DNA of 38,449 bases from assembly GCA_040774145.1 (NCBI GenBank), contig JAXGUU010000002.1, positions 1-38,449 on the forward strand, read 5' to 3'. The notes beneath the pieces were generated by a model, which was given only the letters and a program-made list of their open reading frames with translations, was not told the DNA's origin and did not search any database. Below, piece after piece: positions 1,140 to 38,252 of this stretch. Numbering within the stretch: the stretch's first letter is position 1; the number at the start of each line of letters is the position of its first letter. The position numbers and the translations under genes are program-made. Source of the DNA: Anaerolineae bacterium (GTDB lineage: Bacteria; Chloroflexota; Anaerolineae; B4-G1; SLSP01).

Positions 1140-1150
1140 CCCTCCCTCAT

Positions 1151-2200: not shown

Positions 2201-2294
2201 TTTGTCCTCCTCACGCACCGCCCTGCTCCCCTTGCGATGGGCCTCTGAGGGAGAGGACGACGCCGGGCTGCCGGTGCGGACCGAGGAAACGCGT

Positions 2295-5636: not shown

Positions 5637-5645
5637 AGTCCCCCC

Positions 5646-6887: not shown

Positions 6888-6975
6888 CCACCTCTCCTTC
6901 CAGCCTACGGCAGTCGACCGTCGATGGTCAGCGATCACCCGTCACTCGTTAATCGCCACGCTGTTCGCCGCGCCC

Positions 6976-8157: not shown

Positions 8158-8189
8158 CTCTTCCCCCCTTAAACGTACGCAGCTACCGG

Positions 8190-8996: not shown

Positions 8997-9015
8997 GCTG
9001 GCCTCCAATCCTTTC

Positions 9016-10053: not shown

Positions 10054-10904
10054 ACGTTTCCCCCCTCAGCTATCTTCAACACGTAATCCACGATCCTCGC
10101 GGCGATATCCACATCAGTTGCCTCGCGCGCGCCATGGAACTCCGGCGTGTGGTTGACCTCATTGACCAGGAGTTGCCCCTCGCCATTCTCCAACAGGTCG
10201 ACCGCCACAATGCCCCCACCCACCGCCTTTGCGGCGCCCACCGAAAGCTCGATGAGCTCATCTGTGATCGGGCAGGGCAACGGCGTGCCCCCCAACGCGG
10301 TGTTGGTGATCCAGTGCTCCGACCGGCGGTAGATCGCATAGACGATCTCCTCACCGGTCACCATCACGCGGATGTCACGCCCCGGTTTGTCGACGTACTC
10401 CTGAATGTAGACGACGCCATGCTGATAGCCACCGAGCGTGCTCTTGTGCTCCAGCAAGGCTTCTGCAGCATCGCGATCGTTGACGCGCGCCAACAGCCTG
10501 CCCCAGGAGCCGAAGAGCGGCTTGAGCACGACGGGATACCCCATCGCCTCAATGGCCTTGAGCCCGGACTCGGGCGTGAACGCCACGGCCGTCCGCGGCA
10601 TCGGGAGGCCCGCCTCCTGGAGCGCAGCACTGGTCAGCAGCTTATCGCCGCAGACCGAAATTGTCCGGTGCGGGCTGACCGTGGGAATCCCCAACCCCTC
10701 CAGCCAGCGGCTGATGTAGTAGGCGTTCGTGTGGCTCAGGCAGCGCACCAGAAAGGCGTCGTAGTCGCCAGGGGAGCCGCCATCCAATTCGAAAGTGAGC
10801 TCGCGGGGATCAAAGCGGTCGTACGCCACCCCCCGCTCATCGAATGCCGCCGTGATGAGCTTCTCCTCAACGCGCTTGCGCGAGTATAGCAGGCCGATCT
10901 TCAT
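10050..10904 (-). CDS. lysX: RimK-type ATP-grasp ligase, LysW-glutamate/aminoadipate ligase (LysX/ArgX)
   Basis: [10 protein letters not shown]-terminus and ATP-grasp blocks ([24 protein letters not shown]...LVNEVN). The start is moved to ATG 10904, which has GGAGG 6-7 nt upstream. The track start is a GTG at 10922 overlapping the lysW stop. Confidence 0.92.
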
Positions 10905-10918
10905 GCAAGAACCTCCGG

Positions 10919-11089
10919 TCACTCGCCCCAGTCTTCCTCAACCTCAGGTGCCATCTCAACCTCGAGCGGATCGACGGAGACGACCTCCAGCTCAACACCG
11001 CAGTCAGGGCAGACGATGATCTCGCTTTCCTCTACGTTCTCACCCAACGTCAGTTCTGCTTCGCACTCTGGACACATCACGGTTGCCAT
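10919..11089 (-). CDS. lysW: amino-group carrier protein LysW
   Basis: 56 aa: [56 protein letters not shown]. It has a CxxC...CxxC zinc ribbon, an acidic tail and the diagnostic C-terminal EDWGE. AGGAGAG lies upstream of ATG 11089. The track ORF (to 11179) adds a 30-aa non-homologous extension. Confidence 0.92.
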
Positions 11090-11370: not shown

Positions 11371-11719
11371 ATGATGCAGCCGATGGCAGACGAACTCGAG
11401 TCATTGCAGACGGAACTGGCGCAGTTGCGCGATGAAAACGCGCGACTGGAAGCCGAGGCGAACCGGCTTGCGACGGCGTTGGCAGAAGCCCGCATGGGTG
11501 AAGCCCAACCGAGCGAAGCGGGAAGGCGAGAAGCGACCGCGCAAGAAACGGGTGGCAGAGCATACTACGTCGCGCGAGCGGATGCCCCCCACGCGCTGGG
11601 TGCGGCACGCATTGGAGCACTGCCCGACGTTCCGGTACGAACTGCGCGGGGAGAGCGCGACCTACACGCGCGAACCTCTCTGGTTGGCGGACGTTTTCGT
11701 GCGGAAAGGAATGAGATGA
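11371..11719 (+). pseudogene. frameshifted, truncated N-terminal remnant of an IS66-like transposase
   Basis: Frame 1 reads MADELESLQTELAQLRDENARLEAEANRLATALAEA (coiled coil). Frame 2 continues VKPNRAKREGEKRPRKKRVAEHTTSRERMPPTRWVRHALEHCPTFRYELRGES. This order (coiled coil, basic KRPRKKR stretch, then a degenerate zinc-finger CP-x-CGY-LRG that has lost cysteines) is what I recognise from IS66-type transposase N-termini. No catalytic domain follows. The frame-2 stop overlaps the ATG at 11716. Confidence 0.4.
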
Positions 11720-14700: not shown

Positions 14701-15867
14701 ACCTGGTCGCCGGTGGGGATGCCGGGGGAGGAGCAGTCCATGGTCCTGAGCACCGACTTCCTGCCGTCGGGCGTGCCGCTCGCGTTCCGCGTGACGGTCT
14801 CCGATGGCTTCCTCACGGAGGCTGACCAGGTGACCGGGCTGCTGGTGCCCCATCGATCGCCCGAGGTGGTCATTCACAGCCCTCGCGATGGCGATCGGGC
14901 TGCTCCGGGGTACGCGTGGGCCCTGCAGGCCTGGAGCCGCGAGGATGGCGGCGGCGCGCCTGCCACGGGGGCGTGGCGCTCGTCGCTGGATGGGCCGCTG
15001 GGGAACGACTCTGTGCTCGGCGCCGTGGTGTTGAGCCCCGGCACCCACCGGCTCACCTATGCGGTCACCGATGGGTTGGGGGCCTCCGCCCAGGCGGCGG
15101 TGACGGTCACCGTTGCGCCCATGCCCACGGTGGACCTGGCGATCGCTCCCGACGCCCTGGCCCTCTCGATGCCCTGGCGCGACCCGGTGGTCGTGCAGGC
15201 GCCGCGGCTGCGGATAGGCACCGCGCAGACCGCCACCCTCGCGCTGCGCAACACCGGCGCGGCGGTGACGGCCACGCTGCAGCTCTTTGTTCAGCCGCCC
15301 GGCGCTGCTGAGCGGCTGGTCGCTCAGGAGACGCTGAGCCTCGCGCCCTTTGAGACGCGCTGGATCGGCGGCGCCGTCACGGCAACGGTCGCCGGGCCGC
15401 ACCGCTTCCGCGGCGTGGTCACCGCAGCGTCACCTGCGGATAACACGCCGGGCAACAACGCCCGCGCATGGGATGTCCTGGCCGTGTCCCCGGCCCAGCT
15501 CGTGCCTAGCGCGGCCACGGTCGAGTTCACGGCGCCGGCGGGCACCCCCATCACCCGATCCATCACGCTGAGGAATACCGGCGGCCTGGGCCTGATCGTC
15601 CAGCGGGTGGCGCTGGAGCAGGGCGCGGCATTGACCACCGGCTTCCGGCTCTGGGAGGACGGCTGCTCGGGGACGGCACTGGCGCCCGCCGCGGCGTGCC
15701 GGGTCACGGTGCAGTACACGCCTGTCGCAGGGATCGAAGAGCAGGTCCTGCTGGAGATCAGTTCGACCGACCCGGACCAGCCGGCGCAGCAGGTCGTGCT
15801 CATCGGGAACGTGGGGGCGCTCGCCGAGGAGTGGAAATACGTCTACCTGCCTCTGGTCGTGAGGTAG
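11716..15867 (+). CDS. large exported/anchored protein: parallel beta-helix repeats + HExxH zinc-metallopeptidase-like core + Ig/CARDB-like and ASH/choice-of-anchor-like C-terminal domains
   Basis: ATG 11716 is preceded by GGAAAGGA and followed by a basic stretch plus hydrophobic signal/anchor (GAIICAIAGALALLLAARAASLAAP). Beta-helix-like repeats are present (LTAQGSDFVGSVLALSGAGTADVIGSTFSAII...FQGNAFADM...IRNNSFVG). FHELGHAIGL lies at 13753-13782. There is an Asp-box-like YSADTGVTW and a CARDB-like domain ending PADNTPGNN. The final domain (ITLRNTGGLGLIVQRVAL...C...LAPAAACRVTVQYTP) resembles ASH/choice-of-anchor-D folds. The track start at 11371 is rejected (see the pseudogene above). Confidence 0.8.
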   Translation: MTHFNLWTRGAVRSGLRGRAPLRHGRPTGAIICAIAGALALLLAARAASLAAPLPQPQPARSAQTPVRVAAPSYVGLNTIHITYTHESTCGAACRRDLEVLLPDGSVRVLKTLAEGAVTGSYQHDKLPGGTYGYRIVETTLDGGLPIYSTTTTMRYGTIDGLTIGGTLLYDEVVGEAFACVVPGGVTVGDGLTLALDGARLISNCTITLQGSAALTAQGSDFVGSVLALSGAGTADVIGSTFSAIILDVGPDVVANITQSRFRGTLQLRGAAGSLRFQGNAFADMVRLLTRSAVTFEDNLFLTALSLDEETPESRSWCDEDNALSPTIRNNSFVGRVALGYTLSYTLTTCSDAGFQLVEVGPNYYGDPQGPVYGQVQDDPVVPGIDYGTRWLQRGAAVFPNPFLLGKHLETGSQWQDTQPFPTFWVNGYRLGQHTLTNQITDIMSDKESLFSVDLVTSHERVGGAKVWVMWNGQRVEPSVSVAELVRDAGRKAVHLRNAATTIDFFLPPTEGVTATLELWLDTTALTGYPDAATSGEIKKLVTLSVPLKGAPRMIGIHIVPVTVDGVTPSIGAMRSTLESATPAMLPVASRNLRISTTGYSPAWNTTYMPTAVLLNAVATDLVRYRGAMRYDPVEFPKGELMDFLVGVMPAGSLGGGDGVYLNLRHGIVLVDEGKSEAVFHELGHAIGLYNLVEQYSWPNYPPNGYPVEDVTLFMNQPTTSNATINGVFTGDSGRVVHTPGPGQWWHDPHLVVVDVMGNTAPFWPDPGTLKSFAEAFYALAAEPRPKVLSPAAELDLRRVIVTVATERVELTEASMFFGERRCAAYRPIIETARLFPRDAFEGVTGGSAGEPDVTTGALPLCVSADAYTYASGDIELCVVPIDENGIMPEYEQCQRVLAPEQVNTALQRDVAVLFYDVPASATRASLVTRRSTVSPLLLTSSASLDVVLLAPPAGQTLTDTVTLRWDSQATPRDPGVPIGQPLLAQVSYSADTGVTWSPVGMPGEEQSMVLSTDFLPSGVPLAFRVTVSDGFLTEADQVTGLLVPHRSPEVVIHSPRDGDRAAPGYAWALQAWSREDGGGAPATGAWRSSLDGPLGNDSVLGAVVLSPGTHRLTYAVTDGLGASAQAAVTVTVAPMPTVDLAIAPDALALSMPWRDPVVVQAPRLRIGTAQTATLALRNTGAAVTATLQLFVQPPGAAERLVAQETLSLAPFETRWIGGAVTATVAGPHRFRGVVTAASPADNTPGNNARAWDVLAVSPAQLVPSAATVEFTAPAGTPITRSITLRNTGGLGLIVQRVALEQGAALTTGFRLWEDGCSGTALAPAAACRVTVQYTPVAGIEEQVLLEISSTDPDQPAQQVVLIGNVGALAEEWKYVYLPLVVR

Positions 15868-22262: not shown

Positions 22263-22336
22263 GGGTCGTTAGCTCAGTCCGGCAGAGCAGGGGCCTTTTA
22301 AGCCCAGGGCCGCAGGTTCGAATCCTGCACGACCCA
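22263..22336 (+). tRNA. tRNA-Lys (anticodon UUU)
   Basis: Cloverleaf folded by hand: acceptor GGGTCGT/ACGACCC, D arm GCTC-AGTCCGGCA-GAGC, anticodon stem GGGGC/GCCCA with loop CTTTTAA, T arm GCAGG-TTCGAAT-CCTGC, discriminator A. CCA is not encoded. The 5' and 3' thirds are almost identical to E. coli tRNA-Lys as I remember it. Confidence 0.95.
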
Positions 22337-22457: not shown

Positions 22458-25166
22458 GTGCGCGCCATAAGATCACGTACCCTGCGTCGTCCGTTTAGCC
22501 TGCCGGTCCTGCCGACGCTCATGCAGTGGCTCCACCCACAGCGGCTCTCGCTAGAGAACCGCAATATCTTCTACTTCACGCTCGATACCGCCCTGCAGGG
22601 CCTGATGATGGGCGGCGTCTTCAGCTTCATCTCCATCTTTCTGGTCCGCCTGGGGGCCTCGGAGCTACAGGTCAGCCTGCTCACCTCGCTGCCCGCCATC
22701 GTGATGGTGATGGTGTCCATCCCCGCCGGACAGCTCGTGCAGCGTCAGGAGGATCTTGTCCGCTTTACGAACCTGGTGCGCATCTTCCACCGCGGATCCA
22801 TCCTCGTCGTGGCGATCCTACCCTTCTTTATACGGCCCGAGCACCTCATCGTCGTCATCATCGCGATCTGGTCGGTCAAGGCCATCGCCAATGCGCTCCT
22901 GGAGTCCTCGTGGATGGCAGTCATCGCAGAGGTGATCCCCCCGCGCCGGCGCGCGAAGGTCAACGGCATGCGCTGGATCATCCTGAGCATCGTGACCGCC
23001 GGCGCGGTGGCGATCTTCGGGCAGATACTGGACCGACTACCCTTCCCCTTCAGCTACCAGATCGTCTTCTTCATCTCCTTCCTGGGTGGTTCAGCAGGTA
23101 TGATCTACTGGGGCAAGCTCCGCGTCGCCGGACGTGCCGAACCACCCGCCACCACGGAGCTCAAGGCACGGTCGTTCGGGCACCAGATGCGTTCCTTTTG
23201 GCGGAGCCTGCAGCTGCCGGCCTTCATCCGCTACGAGCTGACGACCTCCGTCTTCAGGATCGGGCTCAATATGCCCACGGCCCTCTACAGCGTCTATTGG
23301 ATTAGGCAACTCCAAGCCTCCGACGTCTGGATCGGCTGGCAGGCCACCGCGAACCAGCTCGCGTTGATCGTCGGCTATGCCGTGTGGAGCCGGGTCATCA
23401 CCCGCCGAGGGCACCGCTCTCCCCTGCTCATCTGCGCCGTGGGGACGGCCCTCTACCCGGTGCTGACGGCCTTTGTGCCCAGCCAGGTCTGGCTGCCCCT
23501 CGTCGCGGTCGTCCAGGGCTTCTTCATCACCGGCGTCAACCTCTCGTTCTTCGATCTGCTCTTGGCCGTCTGCCCCGCCGACCGCCGGCCCAGCTTTGTG
23601 GCGGTCAATACCATGCTGGCCAGTTTCGCTATCTTTGCCGGGCCGCTGCTCGGTACGCTGCTGACCAAGGCAACGACTATTCGAACGATGTTCTACGTTG
23701 CCGGCAGCATCCACCTGGTCGCCGCACTGCTCTTCTGGCGCCTGAAGATCGCATCCTATCATCCGGTTTCAACCATGGAGGACTCAATGAGCAACCCAAC
23801 CCTCGCAGCAAGCATCAACTACGCCCATGCACACACCGAATCTTTCCTAGAGCAATACAAGGAGCTCCTGCGCATCCCATCTATCGGCGCCGATCCCGCC
23901 TATCGTGCCGACGTCCGCCGCGCCGCAGCGTGGATCGCCGACGAGATGAAGCGCCTGGGCATCGAGCACGTCCAGGTGATGGACACGGGTGGACAGCCGG
24001 CGGTCTACGGCGATTGGCTACACGCAGGGGACGAGGCTCCCACCGCGCTCCTCTACGCTCACTATGACGTCCAGCCCGTTGACCCCCTGGATCTCTGGGT
24101 GGCGCCACCTTTCGAGCCCGACGTCCGCGACGGCAGGCTCTACGCCCGGGGCGTGATCGACGACAAGGCCGGTGTCTTCTTGCATCTCAAAGCCTTTGAA
24201 TCGGTGATGGCAGCCAACGGCAGCCTTCCGATCAATGTGAAGTTCATCTTTGAGGGTGAGGAGGAGAGCGGCTCACCGGCGATGGCGCCCTTCATCGAGG
24301 CCCACAAGGAGCTACTATCAGCGGACGTGGTCGTCATCTCCGACGGCGGATCATCTGACGAGATCCCATCGATGATGGCCTCGGTCCGAGGCATCGTCAC
24401 TGCGGAGGTGAATATCGAGGGGCCGGAGCGCGACTTGCACTCCGGTAGTTTTGGCGGTGTGGTGCACAATCCCACCCACATGGTCGGCAAGATCGTCGCC
24501 GCCCTCCACGACGACGAGGGCCGCATCCGAATCCCCGGCTTCTACGACGATGTCGTGCCGGTCTCGGAGGCTCACCAGGCGTTGATTGAGACTAACGAAC
24601 CGCTCGCGCTGGAGCACGCGCGCAAGGAGACCGGCCTCGAGACTTTCTGGGGTGTGCCGGGCTACAGCTACCTTGAGCGGGCGACGGCGCAACCCACCTG
24701 CGACGTCAACGGCATTTACGGAGGGTACCAGGGTGCCGGGGCCAAGACCGTGCTGCCCGCCAAGGCCGGCTTCAAGGTCAGCATGCGCCTTGTGGAGAAC
24801 CAGGACCCCGACGACATCGAGCAGAAGTTCATCGCCTTCGTCAACGGCTTCGTATGCGACACGCTGAAGATCGACGTGCGCATCCTGTCCAGCTCGTGGC
24901 CCGCGGAGACGCAGATCAGCGGCCCGATTGCGCAAGCCGCCATCGATGCCTATACCGCGACCTGGGGCCACGCCCCGCGGATGGAGCGCGCCGGGGGCTC
25001 GGTGCCCATCATCGGTATGCTCCAACACGCCCTGGGAGCGCCCGTGGTCAGCATGGGCTTGGGCAACGGCGGCAACGGGCACTCGCCCAATGAGTACTAC
25101 GACCTGGACTACTTCGCCGTCAACATCGACACGGCCATCCACTTCCTCTACAACATGGCCAAGTAG
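22458..25166 (+). CDS. in-frame fusion: MFS transporter (N-terminal ~440 aa) + M20-family dipeptidase (C-terminal ~460 aa)
   Basis: The N-terminal half has about 12 hydrophobic helices with MFS character. From MSNPTLAASINYAHAHTESFLEQYKELLRIPSI onward it is a typical M20 dipeptidase (LLYAHYDVQP, YARGVIDDKAG, IFEGEEESGSP, HSPNEY). There is no stop codon between the halves. The track start is GTG 22458, and ATG 22521 is an alternative because a TTGTGA-N16-TATGAT promoter candidate (22424-22451) would start transcription at about 22458. Confidence 0.8.
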   Translation: MRAIRSRTLRRPFSLPVLPTLMQWLHPQRLSLENRNIFYFTLDTALQGLMMGGVFSFISIFLVRLGASELQVSLLTSLPAIVMVMVSIPAGQLVQRQEDLVRFTNLVRIFHRGSILVVAILPFFIRPEHLIVVIIAIWSVKAIANALLESSWMAVIAEVIPPRRRAKVNGMRWIILSIVTAGAVAIFGQILDRLPFPFSYQIVFFISFLGGSAGMIYWGKLRVAGRAEPPATTELKARSFGHQMRSFWRSLQLPAFIRYELTTSVFRIGLNMPTALYSVYWIRQLQASDVWIGWQATANQLALIVGYAVWSRVITRRGHRSPLLICAVGTALYPVLTAFVPSQVWLPLVAVVQGFFITGVNLSFFDLLLAVCPADRRPSFVAVNTMLASFAIFAGPLLGTLLTKATTIRTMFYVAGSIHLVAALLFWRLKIASYHPVSTMEDSMSNPTLAASINYAHAHTESFLEQYKELLRIPSIGADPAYRADVRRAAAWIADEMKRLGIEHVQVMDTGGQPAVYGDWLHAGDEAPTALLYAHYDVQPVDPLDLWVAPPFEPDVRDGRLYARGVIDDKAGVFLHLKAFESVMAANGSLPINVKFIFEGEEESGSPAMAPFIEAHKELLSADVVVISDGGSSDEIPSMMASVRGIVTAEVNIEGPERDLHSGSFGGVVHNPTHMVGKIVAALHDDEGRIRIPGFYDDVVPVSEAHQALIETNEPLALEHARKETGLETFWGVPGYSYLERATAQPTCDVNGIYGGYQGAGAKTVLPAKAGFKVSMRLVENQDPDDIEQKFIAFVNGFVCDTLKIDVRILSSSWPAETQISGPIAQAAIDAYTATWGHAPRMERAGGSVPIIGMLQHALGAPVVSMGLGNGGNGHSPNEYYDLDYFAVNIDTAIHFLYNMAK

Positions 25167-29243: not shown

Positions 29244-29954
29244 TTATCTGTCGCTTAGTGACGCCAGACCCTCGCGCAGGGCATAGAGGGCGGCCTGCGT
29301 GCGGCTGGCAAGGTGAAGCTTCGTCAAGATGTTGCTGACGTGTGTGCGCACGGTGGCTTCGCTGATCCGCAGCGCCTCTGCAATCTCCTGGTTGCTCTTC
29401 CCCTTGGCAACAACCTGGAGGACCTCGACTTCGCGCTCCGTCAACGGGTCCTCGGTCGGGGGGCGGTCCGAGGGGCGTGACAGCTCCTGAAGCACCTTAC
29501 GGGCAATGGTGGGCGAGAGTGACGACTCGCCGCGGCAAACCTGGCAAATCGCCTGGACCAGAGCCTCGGGTCCCGTATCCTTCAGCAAATAGCCCGAGGC
29601 GCCGGCCTTGATCGCCGGGAAGACTTTGTCATCGGCGGCGAAGCTCGTCAGCACCAGGATCCGTGCCCGCGCGTCCCGAGCCCTGAGCCGGCGCGTGACC
29701 TCGATACCGTCCATCCTGGGCATAAGTAGATCCAGCAAGACAACGTCAGGATTCAGGGCCTCGATCTTCTCCAGGGCCTCCTGCCCGTCCTGCGCCTCGC
29801 CGATCACCTCAAACCCCTCTTCGGTCTCTAGAAGCGCACGAATACCCCGGCGAACAATGGCGTGATCGTCGACGATCAGCACACGAATCGCTTCATCGGT
29901 CGTCCCCGCTCGTCGGCCGTCGTCTCTCTCCACGATCCGGCTCCCCAGGTTCAT
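29244..29954 (-). CDS. NarL/FixJ-family response regulator (REC + LuxR-type HTH)
   Basis: REC signature IRVLIVDDH...DVVLLDLLMPRMDG...LTSF...KAGASGYLLKD. LuxR HTH signature LTEREVEVLQVVAKGKSNQEIAEALRISEATVRTHVSNILTKL. Its start overlaps the kinase stop (ATGA). Confidence 0.93.
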   Translation of the reverse strand: MNLGSRIVERDDGRRAGTTDEAIRVLIVDDHAIVRRGIRALLETEEGFEVIGEAQDGQEALEKIEALNPDVVLLDLLMPRMDGIEVTRRLRARDARARILVLTSFAADDKVFPAIKAGASGYLLKDTGPEALVQAICQVCRGESSLSPTIARKVLQELSRPSDRPPTEDPLTEREVEVLQVVAKGKSNQEIAEALRISEATVRTHVSNILTKLHLASRTQAALYALREGLASLSDR

Positions 29955-32491
29955 CGAGCCACCGCCACTCTGACCCGGGTTCCGGGCCCGGGCTCGCTAT
30001 CCAACACTAACTCGCCCCCGATCTGTGCCGCCCGCTCGGTCATGCCCTCAAGACCCAACCCACCGCCCTCCTTCGCGGCGTCGGCCTCGAAGCCGACGCC
30101 ATCGTCAACGATCTCCAGCACCACGGCGTCCTGCCAGATGGTCAGGCTCACGCTGATATTCTGTGCGGCGGCGTGCTTGAGCGCGTTATTCAGCACCTCA
30201 CGGGCAATCCGGTAAAGGCCCTCCTCGATCATCGGACAGATCTCTCCCGCACCCTCCACTTGGAAGCTGACCCCCATGCCCGCTCGCTCCTCGACGGCCT
30301 CGAGACGCGTCCGCAAGGCCACCAGCAGCCCCTCATTCTCCAGCACCGAGGGACGCAGCTCGAAGATAAGCAGGCGCATCTCGCGCAGGGCCTCACGCGA
30401 CGTGTCGCGCACATCATACATATACGCCTTAGCCGCATCAGCCATCCCTGCATCCAGACGGCGTGCCGCAGCCTCCGCGTAGAGGGAGACGCCATAGAGC
30501 GCCTGGGTGACCGAGTCGTGGAGCTCACGGGCCAACCGTTGCCGCTCCTCGATCACGGCTAACCGACGTGCCTGCTCGTAAAGCCGTGCGTTCTCGATGG
30601 CGATAGCTGCCTGATGCGCCAGCGATTGGAGGACCAAGAGGTCGCTCTCGTCGAAGGCGTTAAGCTGATCGCTCTGGACGTCGAGCACGCCGATGACGTC
30701 GCCCTTGACTTTCAGAGGCACAATCAGCTCCGAACGCGTTTCAGCGGGGCTCATCCACACATAACGCGGATCCTCGCGAACGTCGGGAACGAGCAGGGGC
30801 TCGCCCGTCGCCGCCACCCAGCCGGTGAGGCCCTCCCTGCCCATCACAAAGCGAGCGGGCGCGAACCGGAACTCCAGCTTGTCCCAAAGCTCTCCGGCAC
30901 CGACACGGTAGGCGACCTCATCACCCTCAACAAGGCCGATCCCGACGTGGTAGTAGCCAAAGGTCTGTTGGATGAGCCTTACAACCTGGTTGAGCAGCTC
31001 ATCCACCGCCAAGATGGACGTGATATGGCTGCCGACCTCGCTAATGACACGGAACTGCTCGGCCCGCCGCTGCTCGGCCTCAAAGAGCTGGGCGTTCACG
31101 ATCGCCGAGCCTGCTTGGTCGGCAAGGGCCTGCAGGACCGCTAGGTCACTTTCGTCGAAAGCGTCAAACACCACGCATTGGATGTTGAGAACACCGATGA
31201 CCTCATCCTTGGTCTTGATCGGCACGGCCAGTTCTGAGCAGGTAGCGGTGTTCAGAGCCCCGGTGAAAGACCGCTCCCGGTGCACATCGGGTATCAGAAT
31301 CGGTATCCCCGTGGCAACCACCTCACCCGCGATGCCCTCCTGGCCCACGCGGATTCGATAGCTCTGGAAGGGTTGGCGCCCGTCACCGTCTGTCTCGCGT
31401 CCCGCACCCGCCCTGAAGACCAGCTCCTCGCCTTCGACCAAGCCGATCTCAACGACGTCATAGCCGAAGCCCTCACGGATAAGGATGACCATCTGATGGA
31501 GGAGCTCGTCCGTCGACAGGATTGACGTCGTGCGGCGTCCGACTTCGCTAAGCACTCGGAACTGCTCAGCACGGCGTTGTTCACCCTCAAAGAGCCGCGC
31601 GTTCTGAACCGCCACACCGATCTGGTCGCCGATAGAGGCCAGCAGCTGGACCTCGCGCCGGCTGAATTCACGGAGGTGGCGCGTGCTCATAAAGAGCGTC
31701 CCGCTGATCCTGCCTTTGGCCCCAACGGGTACAATGGCAAATGAGCGGAAACCCTCCTGTTCGACGGCGATCCGGGTGAGCCGCCCGTCCTCTGAGACAT
31801 CCGGCACAACCAGGGGCTCACCGGATGCCGCGACATACCCCGAAAACCCCTCGCCCACCTCAAGCCGATCGATCTCAGCCACCAGCTCGGGGCTCAGTCC
31901 TTGGTGGGCCGCGATGGTGAGCACGCCGGCACTCGGATCGAGTAGGTAAATGCCACCGGCCTCGCAGTTCATCAGTTGGAGCGTCTTCTCCAGCGCATCG
32001 GCAAGCAGCTGGTCGAGGTTCAGCGACCGGCTCACCACAGCAGCGATGGCATTCACGGCAGCCAGCTCACGGGTGCGCTGCGCGACCTGTCGCGCCAAGG
32101 CATGACTGCGCGCCTCGATGGCCCGGATCCGCAGCCAATAGACGGCTACAGCAACGCCCAGAATAAGCAGCACCACGATCCCCCGGAACCACCAGGTGGC
32201 CCAGAAGACCTGCACGATGGCTACAGCGACGCCTGTATCGCTCCATACGACATCGTCAAGGAGGAGGCTGCCCACGCGGTGGATGTAGCGGTTCAGCGGC
32301 AGGCTATACCGGGTGAAGCCGAGGCTGTGAGGGTCCCCGGATGAGGGTGCGGACTGGGACGAGGCATTCAGCGGGGTGACGCGGCAGATAGCCACCAGCA
32401 GCACCAGACCAGCCGCGAGAGCTGCGCACGTGCCGCGTCGCGCGAGCCGGATGATCCGGTTCCTCAACGCCACGTATCCCCCTCTCTCCAA
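29951..32491 (-). CDS. membrane sensor histidine kinase: 2 TM + three GAF domains + HisKA_3 + HATPase_c
   Basis: TM segments AALAAGLVLLVAI and FRGIVVLLILGVAVAVYWL. Three GAF-like modules are joined by near-identical linkers. The H-box is ERQRLARELHDSVTQAL (HisKA_3/NarX type). The N-box is EVLNNALKHA and the G-boxes are DDGVGF...GLGLEGM. The track start is TTG 32491. GTG 32473, which follows GGGGGA, is an alternative. Confidence 0.9.
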   Translation of the reverse strand: MERGGYVALRNRIIRLARRGTCAALAAGLVLLVAICRVTPLNASSQSAPSSGDPHSLGFTRYSLPLNRYIHRVGSLLLDDVVWSDTGVAVAIVQVFWATWWFRGIVVLLILGVAVAVYWLRIRAIEARSHALARQVAQRTRELAAVNAIAAVVSRSLNLDQLLADALEKTLQLMNCEAGGIYLLDPSAGVLTIAAHQGLSPELVAEIDRLEVGEGFSGYVAASGEPLVVPDVSEDGRLTRIAVEQEGFRSFAIVPVGAKGRISGTLFMSTRHLREFSRREVQLLASIGDQIGVAVQNARLFEGEQRRAEQFRVLSEVGRRTTSILSTDELLHQMVILIREGFGYDVVEIGLVEGEELVFRAGAGRETDGDGRQPFQSYRIRVGQEGIAGEVVATGIPILIPDVHRERSFTGALNTATCSELAVPIKTKDEVIGVLNIQCVVFDAFDESDLAVLQALADQAGSAIVNAQLFEAEQRRAEQFRVISEVGSHITSILAVDELLNQVVRLIQQTFGYYHVGIGLVEGDEVAYRVGAGELWDKLEFRFAPARFVMGREGLTGWVAATGEPLLVPDVREDPRYVWMSPAETRSELIVPLKVKGDVIGVLDVQSDQLNAFDESDLLVLQSLAHQAAIAIENARLYEQARRLAVIEERQRLARELHDSVTQALYGVSLYAEAAARRLDAGMADAAKAYMYDVRDTSREALREMRLLIFELRPSVLENEGLLVALRTRLEAVEERAGMGVSFQVEGAGEICPMIEEGLYRIAREVLNNALKHAAAQNISVSLTIWQDAVVLEIVDDGVGFEADAAKEGGGLGLEGMTERAAQIGGELVLDSEPGPGTRVRVAVAR

Positions 32492-32631
32492 CAGTAAGTG
32501 GAGCCGTCCACACTATTTAGGGCTCAACGACAACCCCCATGATACCGCGCACGACCTCAAGAAGCAATCCCAGTTCTCATCAGACACGATAACTTCGGCT
32601 CAGATCTCGGGGAATCACGCTCGATATAGCA

Positions 32632-32663
32632 CATCGCCCGACACGTGGGGGTGCCGGGCGATG
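32632..32663 (-). terminator. 9-bp GC hairpin between heliorhodopsin and the kinase gene
   Basis: The minus strand reads CATCGCCCG-(14 nt)-CGGGCGATG, beginning about 30 nt after the heliorhodopsin stop. No T tract follows, so a terminator function is uncertain. Confidence 0.3.
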
Positions 32664-32693
32664 CGGGTCAGATTTCGTTGTGCGCGGGCACGA

Positions 32694-33476
32694 TCATACG
32701 GGCGCGAGGGTCCCCGCGAAGATCAGCCAGGCCAGGACTGTTTTAGCCGTCAGGCTCAGGACGATATACGCCCGCTCGCCGAACAGGTAGTCCTTCCAAC
32801 GCCCTACTTTCTTGTACTGCAGCACCATGTTTACCGCGAAGGCGTTGAAGAAGACAAAGAGCGTGGGGATGATCGTGTAGACGAAGGCCGGCGGCTTGGC
32901 GTCCCCGGAGGAGAGCGCGCTGAAGAAGTAGAGCACGATCACGATCCAGGGGATGATCCCGGCGATGCTGCCGTAGATGAAGGCCGTCCAGTCCGTCCGC
33001 TTGGTCGCCTGGTTGTGCAGCTCCATCATGATCCCGAAGAGGTTCATCATCGCGTTGAGGCCAAACATCAGGATCATGCTTCCGAGATCCCAGATGCCGG
33101 TCAGCATGCCGATCAGCACGATCATCAACGACGAACTCAGGGCATACTCGTAGAAGCGTACCGGGTTCATGTTCTTCTTAAGGTCTGAGACATATCGACG
33201 ATATCCCACCGTGGAGAGGTAGAAGTGGGCGACCGCCGAAATCAAGAGGAAGAGCGCCACTGCCGGTCCGAAGCGCAGCTCGTAGAGGAGCTGGGGATCG
33301 GGCACCAGCGAGAAGGTCTCACGGTCAAACCTCAGGAAGTTCGTGAAAATCGGATAGGTCGTGTCATTGCTGAGCACGATCATCAGGATGCCCTGGATCA
33401 GGTGCAGGAAACCCATGACAACGTTGAACTTTCGCAACCCGGCAAACGTTTGCTCAGACACCTTGGCCTGTTTCAT
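32694..33476 (-). CDS. heliorhodopsin (7-TM retinal protein, inverted topology family)
   Basis: The 260-aa product aligns by eye along its whole length with heliorhodopsin 48C12 as I remember it. RKFNVVMGFLHLIQG compares with QNFNRIAGVFHLLQ. AVAHFYLS has the second conserved His. NPVRFYEYALSSSLMIVLIGMLTGIWD compares with NIFRWVEYSLSSSVMIVLIAQICGIAD and includes the counter-ion Glu. GSIAGIIPWIVIVLY and FFNAFAV also match. GERAYIVLSLTAKTVLAWLIFAGTLAPV compares with GERAYIVLSLVAKSALAWQIFSGTLIPA and carries the Schiff-base Lys. The start is set to ATG 33476 (AAGGAG 8 nt upstream), because the track start at 33536 lies inside the -35 of the predicted promoter. Confidence 0.9.
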   Translation of the reverse strand: MKQAKVSEQTFAGLRKFNVVMGFLHLIQGILMIVLSNDTTYPIFTNFLRFDRETFSLVPDPQLLYELRFGPAVALFLLISAVAHFYLSTVGYRRYVSDLKKNMNPVRFYEYALSSSLMIVLIGMLTGIWDLGSMILMFGLNAMMNLFGIMMELHNQATKRTDWTAFIYGSIAGIIPWIVIVLYFFSALSSGDAKPPAFVYTIIPTLFVFFNAFAVNMVLQYKKVGRWKDYLFGERAYIVLSLTAKTVLAWLIFAGTLAPV

Positions 33477-33504
33477 CTCTCGACTCCTTATCACTGAATA
33501 TGCT

Positions 33505-33536
33505 GTCATTGTAGCACAATGACCAATATTTGTCAA
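33505..33536 (-). promoter_or_regulatory. heliorhodopsin promoter overlapped by a 19-bp palindrome (operator candidate)
   Basis: Minus strand: TTGACA (33536-33531), a 17-nt spacer, then TACAAT (33513-33508). The perfect inverted repeat GTCATTGT-AGC-ACAATGAC (33505-33523) covers the -10 and half of the spacer. Confidence 0.55.
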
Positions 33537-33623
33537 TATATTGAAGAGTTAATCTTTGCCACTCCCGGCTTTCGAACGGGTGGTCCCCACCGTGTCAGCG
33601 ATCTGGCGGGAACTCGCGACCGT

Positions 33624-33651
33624 TTGACATTCCGGCGACCGGTTTCATACT
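33624..33651 (+). promoter_or_regulatory. candidate promoter of the ABC-exporter operon
   Basis: TTGACA (33624-33629), a 16-nt spacer, then CATACT (33646-33651). This would give a leader of about 265 nt. Confidence 0.3.
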
Positions 33652-33784
33652 GAGGAGGTAACTCTGGAGGACTCTATTTCGATGGTGAGCGACAACCACT
33701 CCCGGCACTAAGGCCTAACCGGCAGGACCCACATTCGTGTGGGGCGCTGCGCTTGGGTGCTCCTCCATGGGAGGAGCTGTAGTG

Positions 33785-33829
33785 ATGCGTCAGGTGCCGT
33801 TGGAGAATGTTGTCGCAGTGCGTCTATAG
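33785..33829 (+). other. candidate 14-codon leader ORF (MRQVPLENVVAVRL) in the ABC leader
   Basis: The ATG has GGAGGAG 8 nt upstream. That SD is the 3' arm of a perfect hairpin GCTCCTCC-ATG-GGAGGAGC (33759-33777). The stop lies about 30 nt before the terminator stem. A second mini-ORF, MVSDNHSRH (33683-33712), lies upstream behind GGAGGA. Confidence 0.25.
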
Positions 33830-33860
33830 GGACTTCGTGTCCTACCCGTGAGAAGCTTGA

Positions 33861-33899
33861 GGCCGTGGACGTCTGTGACGTCCGCGGCCTTTTCTTTTT
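33861..33899 (+). terminator. intrinsic terminator inside the 5' leader of the ABC operon (attenuator)
   Basis: GGCCGTGGACGTC-TGT-GACGTCCGCGGCC is a 13-bp stem with one G-U pair, followed directly by TTTTCTTTTT. It ends 23 nt before the ABC start codon. No upstream plus-strand gene exists for it to terminate. Confidence 0.6.
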
Positions 33900-33922
33900 C
33901 CCGAGCACATGGAGAACTATTG

Positions 33923-35695
33923 ATGAAACTACCGATCAAGCGTTACTGGAGCCTGCTCCGGACCTATCTGAGACCGCAGTGGCGGCGCATGCTGACGCTG
34001 GGCATACTGCTGATCCTGAAAATCGCCTCGCGCCTGGTGAACCCGCAGATCATTCGAGCCTTCTTGGATCAGGCGCTTGCCGGCGCGCCGACCACGCAGC
34101 TACTGCGCCACGGAGCCCTCTTTCTGGCCATCGCTGCCGCGACGCAGGCGCTGACCGTGATCAGCGTCTATGTCGGCGAGACGGTGGCCTGGACGGCGAC
34201 CAATGCACTGCGGCTGGATCTGCTGCGCCACTGCCTGGGGCTGGACATGACCTTTCACAAGGCACACCAGCCCGGGGAACTCACCGAGCGGATCGACACG
34301 GACGTCAACGCGCTCTCCAACTTCTTCTCGAGCTTCGTCATCAGCGTTACCGGCAACGGCATCTTGGCCATCGGTGTGCTGGCGCTCTTCTTTCGGCAGG
34401 GGTGGCAGTACGGCATCGTCTTTACGCTCTACGCCATCACCGGACTGCTGATCCTGATGCGGCTGCGGAATCTCGTGACGCCCCACTGGACCAAACTTCA
34501 CGAGATTCGCGCGCAATTCTACGGATTTCTGGGTGAGCAGTTCACAGGCACGGAGGACATCCGCGCCAACGGCGCCCAAGGCTACGTGATGCACCGGCTC
34601 TACGAGCACCTGCAAAGCTGGCTCCCCATCAACCGTAATGCCAGCCTGGCAGGCTACTCCGGTTGGATGACCAACGCCGCCCTCGTCGCCGCCGGTGAGG
34701 TCCTCTCCTACGCGCTACCCGGCTACTTCTTCTTCCGCGGTGCATTGACGATCGGTGAGGTCTATATGATCGGCACCTATATGGGCATGCTCTTCGGACA
34801 GATCGCGGAGCTCCGCCGGCAGATCACCGACCTGCAGCACGCAGAGGCAGGCATCGAACGCATTCAGGCGCTCTTCGAGATGCGCCCGCGCCTGACCGAC
34901 GGTGCAGGCAACCCCTTGCCCGAGGGTGCCCTATCGGTCACCCTGGATGGGGTCTCCTTTGCCTATGATGACACGCAGGAGGAGGAGACGCCGACGCCCG
35001 ACGATCGGGTGCTGCAGGATCTCAGCTTTGAGCTGTCACCCGGTCACATCCTGGGCCTGCTCGGTCGAACCGGGAGCGGCAAGACCACGCTGGCGCGGCT
35101 GCTCCTACGCCTCTACGATCCCACCGAGGGGCAGGTCCGCCTGGGCGACGTGCCCCTGACCGAGACAACCATCGGCGACATCCGCAGGCGCGTGGCGCTC
35201 GTCACCCAGGAGGTGCAGCTCTTCCAGGCCAGCGTGCGCGACAACCTCGCGCTTTTTGACCCCAGCGTCTCCGACGCAGCGATCACACAGGTGCTGTACC
35301 AGCTCGGACTGGGCGAATGGCTCACGAGCCTTCCTGAGGGACTCGACACGGAGCTGGGCTCAGGAGGGACCGGGCTTTCTGCGGGACAGGCCCAGCTTCT
35401 GGCCTTCGCCCGCGTCTTCCTCGCCGATCCTGACCTTATCATCCTGGATGAGGCCTCATCGCGCCTGGATCCGGCGACCGAGCTCCTCGTCGAACGCGCT
35501 GTGGACCTGCTCCTTGCGGAGCGAACCGGGATCATCATCGCGCACCGCTTGCCCACCGTCGAGCGAGCGGATGAGATCCTGATCTTGGAGGACGGTCAGA
35601 TCCGTGAAAAGGGCCATCGCCTACAACTCGCGACCGACCCCACATCTTACTTCTACCATCTCCTGGAGACAGGGATGCAGGACGTACTGGCCTGA
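33923..35695 (+). CDS. ABC exporter half-transporter (TMD-NBD), subunit 1 of a heterodimer
   Basis: Six-helix type-I exporter TMD. Walker [12 protein letters not shown], non-canonical signature LSAGQ (35375-35389), Walker [11 protein letters not shown]-loop IIIAHRL. The start is set to ATG 33923 (GGAG 8 nt upstream, [16 protein letters not shown]). Confidence 0.92.
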
Positions 35696-35711
35696 GGGCA
35701 AGGAGAGAGGG

Positions 35712-37559
35712 ATGACTGCAACCACACACAATGGACCGCTCAACGCCGTGCCCCAGTCACGTCTCAGCACGAGTCGGATGCTCTGGCGGTTGATCGCCTT
35801 CAAGCCCTGGTGGTCGCTCGGATACCTGGGGATCTGGCTGGTGATCCATATCATGGAGCTGACCCCGCGTATCGGGACGAAGCTCTTCTACGACACTCTG
35901 ACAGGCGATCAGCCCTTTCGCTATGGCGTGGCGGGCGTCATCGTCTACGTGATTGTAACGCGGACCTTCCACATCTTCACCATCGGCACGGGCGCCGTGG
36001 TCAGCGCCCGGCAGAAGTTCGGCATCGGCTCGCTCCTGCGCCGCAACCTGCTCGCACACATCCTCAATCGACCGGGGGCTAGGGCGGTCCCCGGCGCGCC
36101 GGGCGAGGCCCTCAATACGATCCGTGACGATGTGGGCGAGGTTGAGGACACCATCGGCTGGATCGCCGACCAGATTGCCGTGATGACCTACACACTGGTG
36201 ACGCTGGCGCTGATGATCGCCATCGATGCCAAGATCGCGATCCTGTCATTGATCCCGCTGGTCATCGTCATTCTGATCTCGCGCGCGATGGCGGCCCACG
36301 CGGAGCGCTACCGCCAGGTAAGCCGAGCTGCCACCTCGCGCTTCAGCGGCGCCCTCACCGAGATCCTGGATGCCGTCCAGGCGATCAAAGTCGGGGGCGC
36401 TGAAGCCCACGTCGCCTCGCACGTTGACGCGCTCGGAAGACAGCGACAGCACGCGATGGTGCGCGACCGCTCGCTCAACCAGGTGCTCTACTCGATGTGC
36501 GAGGAGGCCGGTACGCTCAGCACCGGCTTCATCCTGATCCTGGTCGCGAGCGCCATCCGGGACGAGACCTTCACCATCGGCAACTTCGCCTTCTTCGTAA
36601 CGTGTCTCGATAGCTTCACGATGTTGATCGTGGAGGCTGGAGGCTTCACGACACGCTTCAAGCAGGCCGGCGTCGCCTTTCGGCGCCTGATGGAGCTGAT
36701 GCAGGAGGAAAGCCTTACAACCCAGGCGCGCGCCGACGCTGGGGAGCGGCTGGTCACCCACCACCCCATCTACCTACGCGGCGAACTCCCCAGCCTCACG
36801 GTGCCCGAGAGGAGACAGGAAGACCGCCTAAGGCAGCTGGACGTGCGGGGTCTGACCTACACTTACGCAGCCAATGGAAACGGGGCGACCTGCGGCATCC
36901 GGAACATCGACTTCTCCCTACGGCAGGGCGACTTCGTCGTCATCACCGGACGCGTCGGATCGGGCAAGACGACGCTACTGCGGGCGCTCCTGGGCTTGCT
37001 GCCCAGCGAGGAGGGCACGGTGTTGTGGAACGGCGAGCCGGTGCAGGATCGGGCCGCGTTCTTCACGCCGCCGCGCAGCGCCTACACCGCCCAGATTCCG
37101 CACCTCTTCAGTGAGACCCTGCGCGACAACATCCTGATGGGACTGCCGGAGGATTGCGTCGACCTGGCGCGCGCTATCCGACTTGCTGCTTTGGACTATG
37201 ACATCGGACACATGCCTAGCGGCCTCGACACGATGATCGGCCCGAAGGGCGTACGGCTGTCGGGAGGACAGCGACAGCGGGCTGCCGCTGCACGGGTGTT
37301 CGTGCGCGAGCCCGAGCTCCTGGTCTTCGATGACCTCTCCAGCGCGCTGGACGTCGAGACCGAGCAGAGCCTGTGGGAGAACGTCTTCGCAAGCACCGGC
37401 GCGGGGAGCAGCGCTACATGTCTCGTCGTCTCCCACCGCTGCCCGGCGCTGCGCCGCGCCGACCGCATCCTGCTCCTGGTGGACGGGCGCCTCGAGGCCG
37501 ACGGCACGCTGGATGAGCTGCTGGTGACCAGTGAGGATATGCGCCGGATCTGGGGCTAG
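35712..37559 (+). CDS. ABC exporter half-transporter (TMD-NBD), subunit 2 of a heterodimer, Walker-B Glu replaced by Asp
   Basis: Walker [12 protein letters not shown], canonical signature LSGGQRQR, Walker [10 protein letters not shown] (GAC at 37332-37334 where the catalytic Glu is expected), H-loop LVVSHRC. The start is set to ATG 35712 behind AAGGAGAGAGGG, 16 nt after the subunit-1 stop. Confidence 0.92.
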
Positions 37560-37649: not shown

Positions 37650-37958
37650 TCACTCCCCTACCTGCACCAAAGGTCGTACCTCCTGATCCAGTCGCTCCGA
37701 CAACTCGTCCTCCGCGAGATCAAGGTCGTAGTCCACCTGAAGACAAAGCCAGAACTGCGGAGAGACGCCAAAGTAACGACCCAGCCGGAGGGCCGTATCC
37801 GCCGTTATCCGTCGGCGCCCGAGTACAATCTCATTGATGCGTCGAGCCGGAACACCCATAGCCAAAGCCACCTGATTCTGGCTCAAGCCCATCGGCTTGA
37901 GGAACTCTTCCTGCAGTACCTCCCCCGGATGCACGGGGGCCAGTTTCTTCTCAGACAT
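37650..37958 (-). CDS. higA: HigA-family antitoxin (XRE-type HTH)
   Basis: HPGEVLQEEFLKPMGLSQNQVALAMGVPARRINEIVLGRRRITADTALRLGRYFGVSPQFWLCLQVDYDL is the canonical HigA/VapI pattern (HPGE...L...G.S...LA..LGV....I..I..G.R.IT.D.ALRL...FG.S..FWLNLQ..YDL). Confidence 0.92.
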   Translation of the reverse strand: MSEKKLAPVHPGEVLQEEFLKPMGLSQNQVALAMGVPARRINEIVLGRRRITADTALRLGRYFGVSPQFWLCLQVDYDLDLAEDELSERLDQEVRPLVQVGE

Positions 37959-37970
37959 TCTCTCGTCTCC

Positions 37971-38252
37971 TCAATGGTAATCGACAATCTCCACGCTATA
38001 GGCATCTCCTTCCAGCCACTCAAAACAGAGGCGCCATTGATCGTTGATCCGGATGCTGTACTGACCTTCGCGCTCCCCACGCAGTTTCTCCAAGCGGTTA
38101 GCCGGCGGAACACGCAGGTCATTGAGGCCCATAGCTCTATGCAGCATACGCAGCTTTCGCAAGGCCACCGGCTGAATCGTCGGCGGGAACTTCCGCGACC
38201 TCTGTCGCTGGAACACTCGTTGCGTCTCCGAGCACGCAAAGCTCCGTATCAT
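37971..38252 (-). CDS. higB: HigB-family toxin (RelE/ParE superfamily, plasmid-maintenance killer protein)
   Basis: MIRSF...L..L..A..L.DL.VPP.NRLEKL.G.R.GQYSIRINDQWR.CF.W..G.A..VEIVDYH is the canonical HigB pattern. The toxin is upstream of the antitoxin, as in higBA modules, with a 12-nt gap. Confidence 0.92.
   Translation of the reverse strand: MIRSFACSETQRVFQRQRSRKFPPTIQPVALRKLRMLHRAMGLNDLRVPPANRLEKLRGEREGQYSIRINDQWRLCFEWLEGDAYSVEIVDYH

Follow-up and report, generated by a model that had tools for sequence, protein, structure and literature searches.

The subject of this study is the heliorhodopsin (HeR) locus at positions 29244-37559 of a 38,449-nucleotide stretch of an Anaerolineae bacterium genome (assembly GCA_040774145.1, contig JAXGUU010000002.1, positions 1 to 38,449 of the forward strand; hereafter the window), in which the HeR gene lies between a sensor kinase-response regulator pair and a pair of ATP-binding cassette (ABC) half-transporter genes, ABC1 and ABC2. 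All five genes were found where an earlier note on this DNA had placed them. With a probability of about 0.6, the locus consists of three separately transcribed modules lying side by side and is not one integrated light-signalling operon. The HeR gene would then be a stand-alone gene, with its own promoter and 3' hairpin, for a non-pumping retinal photoreceptor like that of Bellilinea caldifistulae (BcHeR); ABC1 and ABC2 would form an exporter of the TmrAB/BmrCD/OmrDE type, transcribed through its own attenuator-like leader; and the kinase-regulator pair would be an inserted, lineage-specific paralogue. The most original element of the locus is the leader RNA of the exporter, which was previously undescribed. 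To our knowledge, the physiology of heliorhodopsins is largely open, only three partner proteins having been shown experimentally.

Comparisons were made with the 80 best species-level HeR-bearing genome loci (L001-L080), nearly all of them metagenome-assembled genomes (MAGs) of Anaerolineae or other Chloroflexota, and with loci carrying ABC1 homologues, amongst which an orthologue group of 64-98% identity was followed by a sharp fall to 58% or less, the level of paralogues. The HeR and exporter genes are divergent, with 446 bp between their starts. Both promoters lie in this spacer, described earlier as a regulatory region of about 450 bp; most of it is taken up by the conserved leader of the exporter. 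The exporter promoter matches the consensus (Table 1), its -35 hexamer being invariant in six aligned orthologue loci and its -10 hexamer varying amongst TATACT, TATAAT and TAGAAT, and in most other ABC1 orthologue loci TTGACA occurs 278-387 nt upstream of ABC1. Both hexamers of the HeR promoter are kept in alignments with L087 and L002. As the TTG at 33536 is part of the -35 hexamer of this promoter and not a start codon, the HeR gene starts at ATG 33476, after a short leader and behind a GGAG ribosome-binding site at 33485-33488. No conservation was seen in the 88 bp separating the two promoters, not even with L087. The inverted repeat GTCATTGT-AGC-ACAATGAC at 33505-33523, with perfect 8-bp arms, overlaps the HeR promoter at its spacer and -10 hexamer and is a possible operator; it is partly kept in L087 and not in L002. 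A conserved operator for a regulator between the two promoters was considered and rejected, since neither this repeat nor a second one, CCCGG..CGGG at ~33565-33585, is conserved even in L087.

On its other side the HeR gene is followed by a GC-rich hairpin without a canonical U-tract, which probably marks the 3' end, or serves as the terminator, of the HeR transcript. Hairpins equivalent to it come after the HeR genes of L001, where the next gene is Ada (z=-5.5), and of L087, where the kinase comes next (z=-4.4). Because this hairpin is common to both arrangements, the kinase-regulator pair was inserted downstream of the HeR gene's own 3' element; it is a recent, lineage-specific insertion between the HeR hairpin and Ada, and is probably unrelated to the HeR in function.

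The leader of the window extends for ~265 nt from the ABC promoter and contains, in order, a short upstream open reading frame (ORF), a variable central domain, a block ending in GTGCGTC, a small hairpin and an intrinsic terminator. Leaders of ~220-350 nt were found upstream of the ABC1 orthologues in L001, L002, L007, L081, L084, L085, L087-L094 and L105. An upstream ORF of 5-9 codons occupies the same place in all 12 distinct leaders and has a ribosome-binding site in 11 of them; the sequence of its peptide is not conserved, but its pairing is. In the RNAalifold consensus the upstream ORF, its start codon included, pairs with the conserved 3' block, the arms of this long-range helix being GCGACAAC/GTTGTCGC in the window and showing compensatory changes elsewhere, for example GACGCGAACTTC:GAAGTTTCGCGTC in L007 and CTGAACGC:GCGTTCAG in L084. 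When the 12 leaders were folded independently, the upstream ORF paired in every one with the block 5' of GYGCGTC, although the sequences involved are wholly different in L002, L007 and L084. The leader of the window folded alone gave z=-4.8. In a covariation test, in which the tested structure was itself derived from the same alignment, 93.5% of cells were paired and 13 of the 30 pairs had changed on both sides, compared with 4.8 +/- 1.6 in shuffled alignments (none of 500 reached 13) and 1-4 in slid controls.

The terminator was recovered by a strict scan in 16 of 18 ABC1-orthologue loci, including loci without an HeR gene, and its core motif in all 17 orthologue loci that have the leader (all but L083). 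The same core motif was found in none of ~70 paralogue-ABC loci and none of 77 HeR-only loci. Thirteen pairs of the terminator are 100% paired across the alignment and three of them have changed on both sides. Searches of Rfam gave no match to the leader at the gathering threshold (whole window), nor at E<=1 (33480-33960). The layout follows the order expected of an attenuator in the 12 distinct leaders: promoter first, then a short ORF preceded by a ribosome-binding site, and an intrinsic terminator ahead of the structural gene. Specific to this ABC orthologue group, the leader probably represents a new cis-regulatory RNA of Chloroflexota, of the attenuator type.

By default, transcription would terminate in this leader before ABC1, and a ribosome occupying or stalling on the upstream ORF would relieve termination. 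The pump would then be induced by translation stress, with its expression governed by the leader and not dependent on the HeR. The nearest functional precedent is bmrCD of Bacillus subtilis, where ribosome-mediated attenuation acts through the translated leader peptide BmrB and antibiotics that target the ribosome switch the exporter genes on (Reilman et al., 2014; PMC4191407). Both systems place a short leader ORF and an intrinsic terminator before a heterodimeric exporter; expression of the pump is gated by a ribosome on the leader in bmrB-bmrCD and would be so in the window. The two leaders have no sequence relationship, however. The upstream ORF is here only 5-9 codons long and the terminator lies ~150 nt further downstream, whereas the alternative stem-loops of bmrB form within the leader ORF, and the upstream ORF of the window, unlike bmrB, is sequestered by a long-range helix. 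A prediction of induction by translation stress offers a concrete route to the substrates of the exporter.

Several observations do not sit well with ribosome stalling as the switch. The L081 leader has no obvious ribosome-binding site for its upstream ORF. With the upstream ORF masked and nascent transcripts folded, no consistent alternative pairing that could serve as an antiterminator was found; masking frees the 3' block, which in some sequences only can form a weak 6-bp pairing (two of the pairs G-U) with the 5' arm of the terminator. The terminator itself forms in silico in all leaders when the upstream ORF is masked. Lastly, the terminator stem (GGACGTC..GACGTCC core), its TGT loop and the GTGCGTC block are near-invariant amongst species whose ABC proteins are only 65-75% identical, a conservation too high for an ordinary terminator, and a protein or a ligand may be involved. 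As no consistent antiterminator pairing emerged, the step at which the ribosome switches the leader is one that we infer.

It is therefore necessary to consider that the leader could instead be a ligand-sensing riboswitch, or that its terminator could be under the control of a sequence-specific protein that reads the GGACGTC-N3-GACGTCC palindrome, the GTGCGTC block or both. The near-invariance just described would suit such a mechanism, as would the negative antiterminator search and an upstream ORF that is conserved in its pairing and not in its peptide. The only loop variant is likewise in its favour: ACA, the exact complement of TGT, occurs in L094 and L105 (compared with L002), an inversion of the loop within a perfect palindrome. 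It fits less well that the start codon, in-frame stop and ribosome-binding site of a short ORF have been maintained at the same position in 11 of the 12 leaders despite sequence change, that the central domain varies in both length and sequence, unlike a ligand pocket, and that no Rfam family was matched even at E<=1. A riboswitch or a protein-read terminator is accordingly retained as a tentative alternative, and attenuation by a translating ribosome is preferred.

The protein encoded between the two pairs is a heliorhodopsin with the lysine, glutamate and histidine hallmarks of the family, as had been proposed from the sequence, and this was confirmed by two family models and by alignment to 48C12. 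It matched Pfam PF18761 over its full length (E=4.1e-103; 344 bits, cut-off 26.7; residues 14-257 on model positions 1-242) and passed the NCBIfam equivalog NF038020 (377 bits, cut-off 100), and its best PDB matches were TaHeR (6is6, E=1e-78) and 48C12 (6su3, E=4e-60). In pairwise and multiple alignments the four hallmark residues listed in Table 1 fall, in the order given there, on H23, H80, E107 and K241 of 48C12; the Schiff-base lysine also aligned with K238 of TaHeR and K252 of the Ornithinimicrobium cerasi HeR (OcHeR), and the counter-ion with E108 and E118 of these proteins. Against the reference sequences of Supplementary Data 20 of PMC11109279, identity was 78% to BcHeR (full length), 51% to the Izimaplasma HeR, 46% to 48C12 and 43% to OcHeR. 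The family search returned over 7,500 homologues; the nearest 120 are 76-95% identical and, where named, come from Anaerolineae. BcHeR, cited in PMC9769723 as a characterised heliorhodopsin (Shibukawa et al., 2019), belongs to the same clade (L032) and shares all hallmark residues, although its neighbourhood, unlike that of the window, contains neither a window-type ABC pair nor a kinase-regulator pair. From the identity to BcHeR and the alignment to solved HeR structures we infer an inverted topology with a cytoplasmic N-terminus, retinal binding, a slow photocycle and no ion pumping. By analogy with the three HeRs of known function, the most likely mode of action of the protein is contact with other proteins, dependent on light and made through its cytoplasmic loops. 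Domain searches revealed no crt, blh or carotenoid-oxygenase domain in any other sizeable ORF of the window, in agreement with the earlier remark that no retinal-synthesis gene is visible there.

ABC1 has a canonical Walker B glutamate (LIILDE) and a deviant LSAGQ signature, and ABC2 an aspartate in place of the catalytic glutamate (LLVFDD) and a canonical LSGGQ signature. From this asymmetry follow one degenerate and one consensus ATP site, the degenerate one supplied by ABC2, as in the type-I (type IV fold) exporters of the TmrAB, TM287-288 and BmrCD type, which are likewise built from two half-transporters. The Pfam domains and the asymmetric ATP sites thus bear out the divergent, two-gene heterodimeric exporter recognised at the outset. 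ABC1 gave full-length PDB matches to TmrA, Sav1866 and TM288; neither protein reached any NCBIfam equivalog. The pair is probably a drug or metabolite efflux pump. The start of ABC1 is ATG 33923, MK[LIV]PI being kept in 18 orthologue loci, and that of ABC2 is ATG 35712, behind a GGAGAGAGGG ribosome-binding site. In L001 the ABC2 orthologue (4859-6793, minus strand) is broken in the alignment into four segments (56%, 26%, 2% and 12% of the query), which suggests that it is frameshifted; it could be a decaying gene or reflect long-read assembly errors of the MAG.

The linkage between the HeR and the exporter was surveyed from both sides. A tblastn search of the 80 HeR loci with the proteins of the window placed orthologues of both ABC genes (ABC1 70-75%, ABC2 67-77%) divergent from and adjoining the HeR gene in only three, L001, L002 and L007. 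These are collinear with the window over at least 15 kb, so that alone they show shared ancestry only. Amongst the ABC1 orthologues, L087 and L088 carry the whole kinase-regulator-HeR-ABC block with the HeR gene divergent and adjoining, and the HeR gene is placed in the same way in L001, L002/L094, L007 and L105. In L085 it lies 3.8 kb off with a 1,070-aa gene in between. No HeR gene occurs in the 1.8-7 kb visible upstream of the orthologues in L081/L082, L084, L089, L090 and L092, none was seen in the shorter upstream view of L083, L091 and L093, and there is none at the ~70 paralogue-level loci (L095-L165). About half of the ABC orthologues are thus without an HeR gene nearby. In the ABC1 tree the HeR-linked members take three separate positions, including the most basal, and are interleaved with unlinked ones. 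In the HeR tree a single sub-clade contains every HeR linked to this pump, together with the unlinked HeRs of L003, L004, L009 and L166. The simplest reading of these trees would be one old juxtaposition, inherited as a block in a single Anaerolineae sub-clade, with several later losses on each side. Residues found specifically in the ABC-linked HeRs (R93, S133, M134, S186, L188) were examined and set aside as clade markers, not evidence.

A census of ORF families within 6 kb on either side of the 80 HeR genes found no family in more than eight loci, and the Anaerolineae HeR clade is therefore without a clade-wide genomic partner. The recurrent neighbours (an OppD/F-type ATPase, SDR, DUF1295, DegV, an AhpC/TSA peroxiredoxin, DUF2177, DUF4345 and Staygreen) overlap the groups catalogued by Cho et al. 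(2024). DUF2177 occurs in five loci, ~150 nt upstream of the HeR gene on the same strand, and a Staygreen/Mg-dechelatase-like gene in four, ~45 nt downstream on the same strand (e.g., L052 1314-1811). In five loci a protein of ~1,100 aa without a Pfam match is encoded directly upstream of the HeR gene (e.g., L062 6528-9839); that the 1,070-aa gene of L085 belongs to the same family was rejected (E=0.8). The lack of such a partner argues against inferring function from adjacency in this HeR clade.

There are nevertheless several points that weigh against three unconnected modules. The divergent HeR-ABC pair persists while the other flank of the HeR gene changes (with or without Ada, with or without the kinase-regulator pair), and it persists down to 64-70% ABC1 identity (L002, L085), longer than neutral gene order often lasts. 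In L040 a second, unrelated heterodimeric exporter (<=35% identity; 650-5480) lies directly upstream of the HeR gene on the same strand, with a gap of 330 nt, and exporter pairs also flank the HeR genes of Ornithinimicrobium and Ca. Izimaplasma (PMC11109279). Downstream, the spacer between the HeR and kinase genes yielded no consensus promoter and no canonical U-tract terminator, and for that reason transcription may read through from the HeR gene into the kinase-regulator genes. The HeR-ABC linkage is somewhat more persistent than neutral gene order, and far from obligate. As a rough estimate, in which independent events (this lineage, L040, Ornithinimicrobium and Izimaplasma) were set against several hundred HeR contexts and exporters were assumed to make up ~0.5% of genes, the recurrence of HeR/exporter juxtaposition is near chance expectation. 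As to the L040 exporter itself, its A subunit has a Walker B aspartate and an H-loop glutamine and its B subunit is canonical, and this degenerate-then-canonical order gives a layout that mirrors omrD-omrE-helR; an orthologue in L029 (1831-5602) is 4.4 kb from the HeR gene.

The earlier note mentioned a report connecting a heliorhodopsin with an ABC transporter, and this report exists. OcHeR binds the heterodimeric multidrug exporter OmrDE (SOC58305, SOC58303) with micromolar affinity, and light raises the activity of the pump 1.8-2.8-fold (Cho et al., 2024, Nat Commun; PMC11109279). OmrDE is encoded just upstream of OcHeR in the same operon, with a gap of 37 nt, and OmrD has an aspartate in place of the catalytic glutamate; the ABC group of that study comprises seven operons, none from Chloroflexota, and only same-strand arrangements were scored (PMC11109279). 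A complex of this type could also be formed in the window, with the HeR binding ABC1/ABC2 and light raising ATPase activity and transport, so that the attenuator would set the amount of pump and light its activity. Here, as there, the HeR gene adjoins two half-transporter genes of a type-I heterodimeric exporter with one Asp and one Glu site, and the HeR has the glutamate counter-ion, the Schiff-base lysine and basic residues in intracellular loop 3 (ICL3). The recurrence of heterodimeric exporter pairs beside HeR genes and the co-inheritance of the HeR-ABC block in one sub-clade over considerable divergence also speak for such a complex.

The differences are considerable, however. The exporter of the window is divergent across 446 bp and has a separate promoter, whereas OmrDE shares an operon with OcHeR; the canonical subunit gene comes first and the degenerate one second, the opposite of omrD-omrE; the window exporter has its own attenuator-like leader; and the HeR of the window, a member of the BcHeR-like Chloroflexota clade, shares only 43% identity with OcHeR, the pumps being likened by their described architecture. 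Amongst the OcHeR residues that contact OmrDE, W170 (W163 in the window), R229, R233 and R235 (K222, R226 and K228) and R102 (R94) are kept, at least in character, but D167 (K159), W225 (V218) and R104 and R105 (V96 and S97) are not. These contacts were rejected as a diagnostic, since the conserved ones are generic to the HeR family and several are not conserved. The HeR and the pump are not co-transcribed, the pump adjoins only 3 of the 80 related HeRs, at least five ABC-orthologue lineages have no HeR gene within the visible 1.8-7 kb upstream, and L166, a very close relative with an HeR gene and the kinase, has no ABC pair upstream. The rough count of independent juxtapositions, near chance expectation, adds to these objections.

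We consequently regard a light-modulated export complex of the OcHeR-OmrDE kind as rather unlikely at this locus. The light-modulated export module suggested earlier gains an ABC precedent and a matching heterodimer architecture, but loses through adjacency in three of 80 loci, ABC orthologues without an HeR, separate transcription and a leader that would act independently of the HeR. Should the HeR have a partner amongst its neighbours, it would be the exporter, with transport enhanced post-translationally by light as for OcHeR-OmrDE; a functional contact between the two is plausible, though less likely than not. Three separately transcribed modules remain the preferred reading. The locus nonetheless provides a second pairing of an HeR with a heterodimeric exporter, phylogenetically independent of that in Ornithinimicrobium. 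With 78% identity between its HeR and the well-behaved BcHeR, one reconstitution experiment could test light-modulated export beyond one actinobacterial genus.

The third module was correctly described at the outset as a GAF-GAF-GAF kinase and a NarL-type regulator on the HeR strand, ~200 bp downstream, as Pfam domains showed. The spacer from the HeR stop to the kinase start is ~200-220 bp. The kinase ORF reaches up to TTG 32491, but alignment with the 95% and 87% identical orthologues makes GTG 32473 the most likely start; the protein appears membrane-anchored from its hydrophobic segments. The start of the regulator overlaps the kinase stop by 4 nt. Neither protein reached an NCBIfam equivalog cut-off (the regulator scored 199 bits against NarL; cut-off 250). 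Histidine kinases (with GAF, PAS and other domains) and response regulators are reported to be enriched within 10 kb of HeRs, Chloroflexi included (Bulzu et al., 2021, bioRxiv 10.1101/2021.02.01.429150 / mSphere), so that with the work of Cho et al. both halves of the earlier partner hypothesis were already precedented.

The window resembles these cases in having a GAF HisKA-type kinase and a regulator within 10 kb of an HeR gene in a Chloroflexota genome, but its linkage is confined to one near-species-level lineage and lends no support to a conserved HeR-kinase partnership. By tblastn, neither gene had an orthologue at any of the 80 HeR loci; the only orthologues are those of L087/L088 (kinase 87%, regulator 90%) and L166 (kinase 95%; regulator 96%, partial). 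Directly after the HeR gene, L001 and L002 have an Ada orthologue, and L007 another gene that is neither Ada nor the pair. The insertion limits could not be drawn from a spacer alignment with L001 and L002, in which only the coding ends align, the intergenic DNA being too diverged. The kinase is one of a very large multi-GAF/HisKA_3 paralogue family in Anaerolineae with variable sensor modules, and its nearest homologues of the same architecture (64% and 55%) belong to kinase-regulator pairs in unrelated contexts with no HeR gene nearby.

Positions 4403-8541 of L166 (NPIE01025318.1) deserve separate mention. Over the kinase and regulator L166 is 95% identical in nucleotide sequence to the window. 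In L166, a complete but different HeR gene (83% aa identity) is followed by a 47-codon remnant of the 3' end of a window-type HeR gene, then the kinase and the regulator; no ABC pair is found upstream of its HeR gene. Either replacement or recombination has truly taken place at this HeR locus, or the assembly is chimeric.

It is very improbable that the HeR serves as the light input of the membrane GAF kinase, in the manner of a sensory rhodopsin and its transducer, with the NarL-type regulator controlling the HeR and ABC promoters. The shared strand, the short spacer without a recognised promoter or U-tract, the apparent membrane anchor and the enrichment reported by Bulzu et al. would all be in keeping with such a relay, and the HeR-kinase-regulator order is kept in L087, L088 and L166, in the last even after replacement of the HeR gene. 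Retention amongst near-identical genomes is uninformative, however, and the relay is opposed by the absence of the pair from all 80 HeR loci, by closest pair-less genomes in which Ada or another gene follows the HeR gene, by the paralogue family from which the kinase comes, by the hairpin that the HeR gene keeps upstream of the kinase and by the 88 bp between the promoters, which are unconserved even in L087. The suggestion that the GAF kinase is the output partner of the HeR was accordingly not upheld, the neighbourhood not being conserved, and the kinase is removed as a likely HeR partner. A light- and drug-responsive efflux module combining both ideas, in which the HeR was captured as light input of the kinase, their contact in the membrane determines how far the regulator is phosphorylated, the regulator acts on the HeR and ABC promoters and the HeR also boosts the pump directly, is equally hard to credit, although if true it would be the first in-trans rhodopsin-to-two-component-kinase relay shown for a heliorhodopsin.

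Table 1. Features of the heliorhodopsin locus, with positions in the window.
Feature	Position	Strand	Details
NarL/LuxR-type response regulator (receiver and GerE helix-turn-helix)	29244..29954	-	Pfam Response_reg E=3.8e-32, GerE E=4.3e-23
Sensor histidine kinase (N-terminal hydrophobic segments, three GAF, HisKA_3, HATPase_c)	29951..32473	-	Pfam
GC-rich 15-bp hairpin, ~30 nt past the HeR stop	32630..32665	-	dG -35.7 kcal/mol, z=-3.46
Heliorhodopsin (HeR), 260 aa	32694..33476	-	H25, H84, counter-ion E110, Schiff-base K245
HeR promoter	33508..33536	-	TTGACA, 17 nt, TG-extended TACAAT; 11/12 consensus matches
ABC-operon promoter	33624..33651	+	TTGACA, 16 nt, CATACT; consensus match
Upstream ORF, 9 codons, MVSDNHSRH*	33682..33711	+	GGAGGA ribosome-binding site 33666-33671; 5' strand of long-range helix
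Conserved 3' block GGTGCCG..GGAG..GTTGTCGC..GTGCGTC	33793..33824	+	Pairs with upstream ORF including start codon
Intrinsic terminator AGGCCGTGGACGTC-TGT-GACGTCCGCGGCCT then TTTCTTTTT	33860..33899	+	Ends ~23-32 nt before ABC1 start
ABC1 half-transporter, 590 aa (transmembrane and nucleotide-binding domain)	33923..35695	+	ABC_membrane and ABC_tran
ABC2 half-transporter, 615 aa	35712..37559	+	ABC_membrane and ABC_tran

Directly after the ABC operon lies a HigB/HigA toxin-antitoxin pair (37650-38252, minus strand), whose HigA is 85% conserved in L001 at the corresponding place. In L085 and L084 the HeR or ABC genes have recombinase or integrase genes on their flanks, in keeping with a neighbourhood prone to recombination.

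The rest of the window encodes LysX/ArgC/ArgB/ArgD-type enzymes, carbamoyl-phosphate synthase, M20 peptidases, an FtsK-like protein, dehydrogenases, Ada and HigBA. A tRNA gene at 22263-22336 is the sole Rfam match of the window at the gathering threshold. It is followed by a 902-aa ORF (22458-25166, plus strand) in which an MFS transporter domain is joined to an M20 peptidase and its dimerisation domain, an unusual fusion that matches as two separate pieces in L001, L002 and L007; it may represent two genes or a fusion specific to this genome. A putative 1,498-aa ORF (11371-15867, plus strand) has no Pfam match, is overlapped by long ORFs on the opposite strand and lies where the GC content of the window is highest (0.70 at 14-16 kb). 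The genes at 5646-10922 (minus strand) encode a LysX/ArgX-type (RimK-like) ligase, a semialdehyde dehydrogenase, an amino-acid kinase and a class-III aminotransferase and adjoin carA and carB. Together they look like a carrier-protein-type arginine/lysine biosynthesis cluster, and amongst the fetched loci only that of Bellilinea (L032) has them as well.

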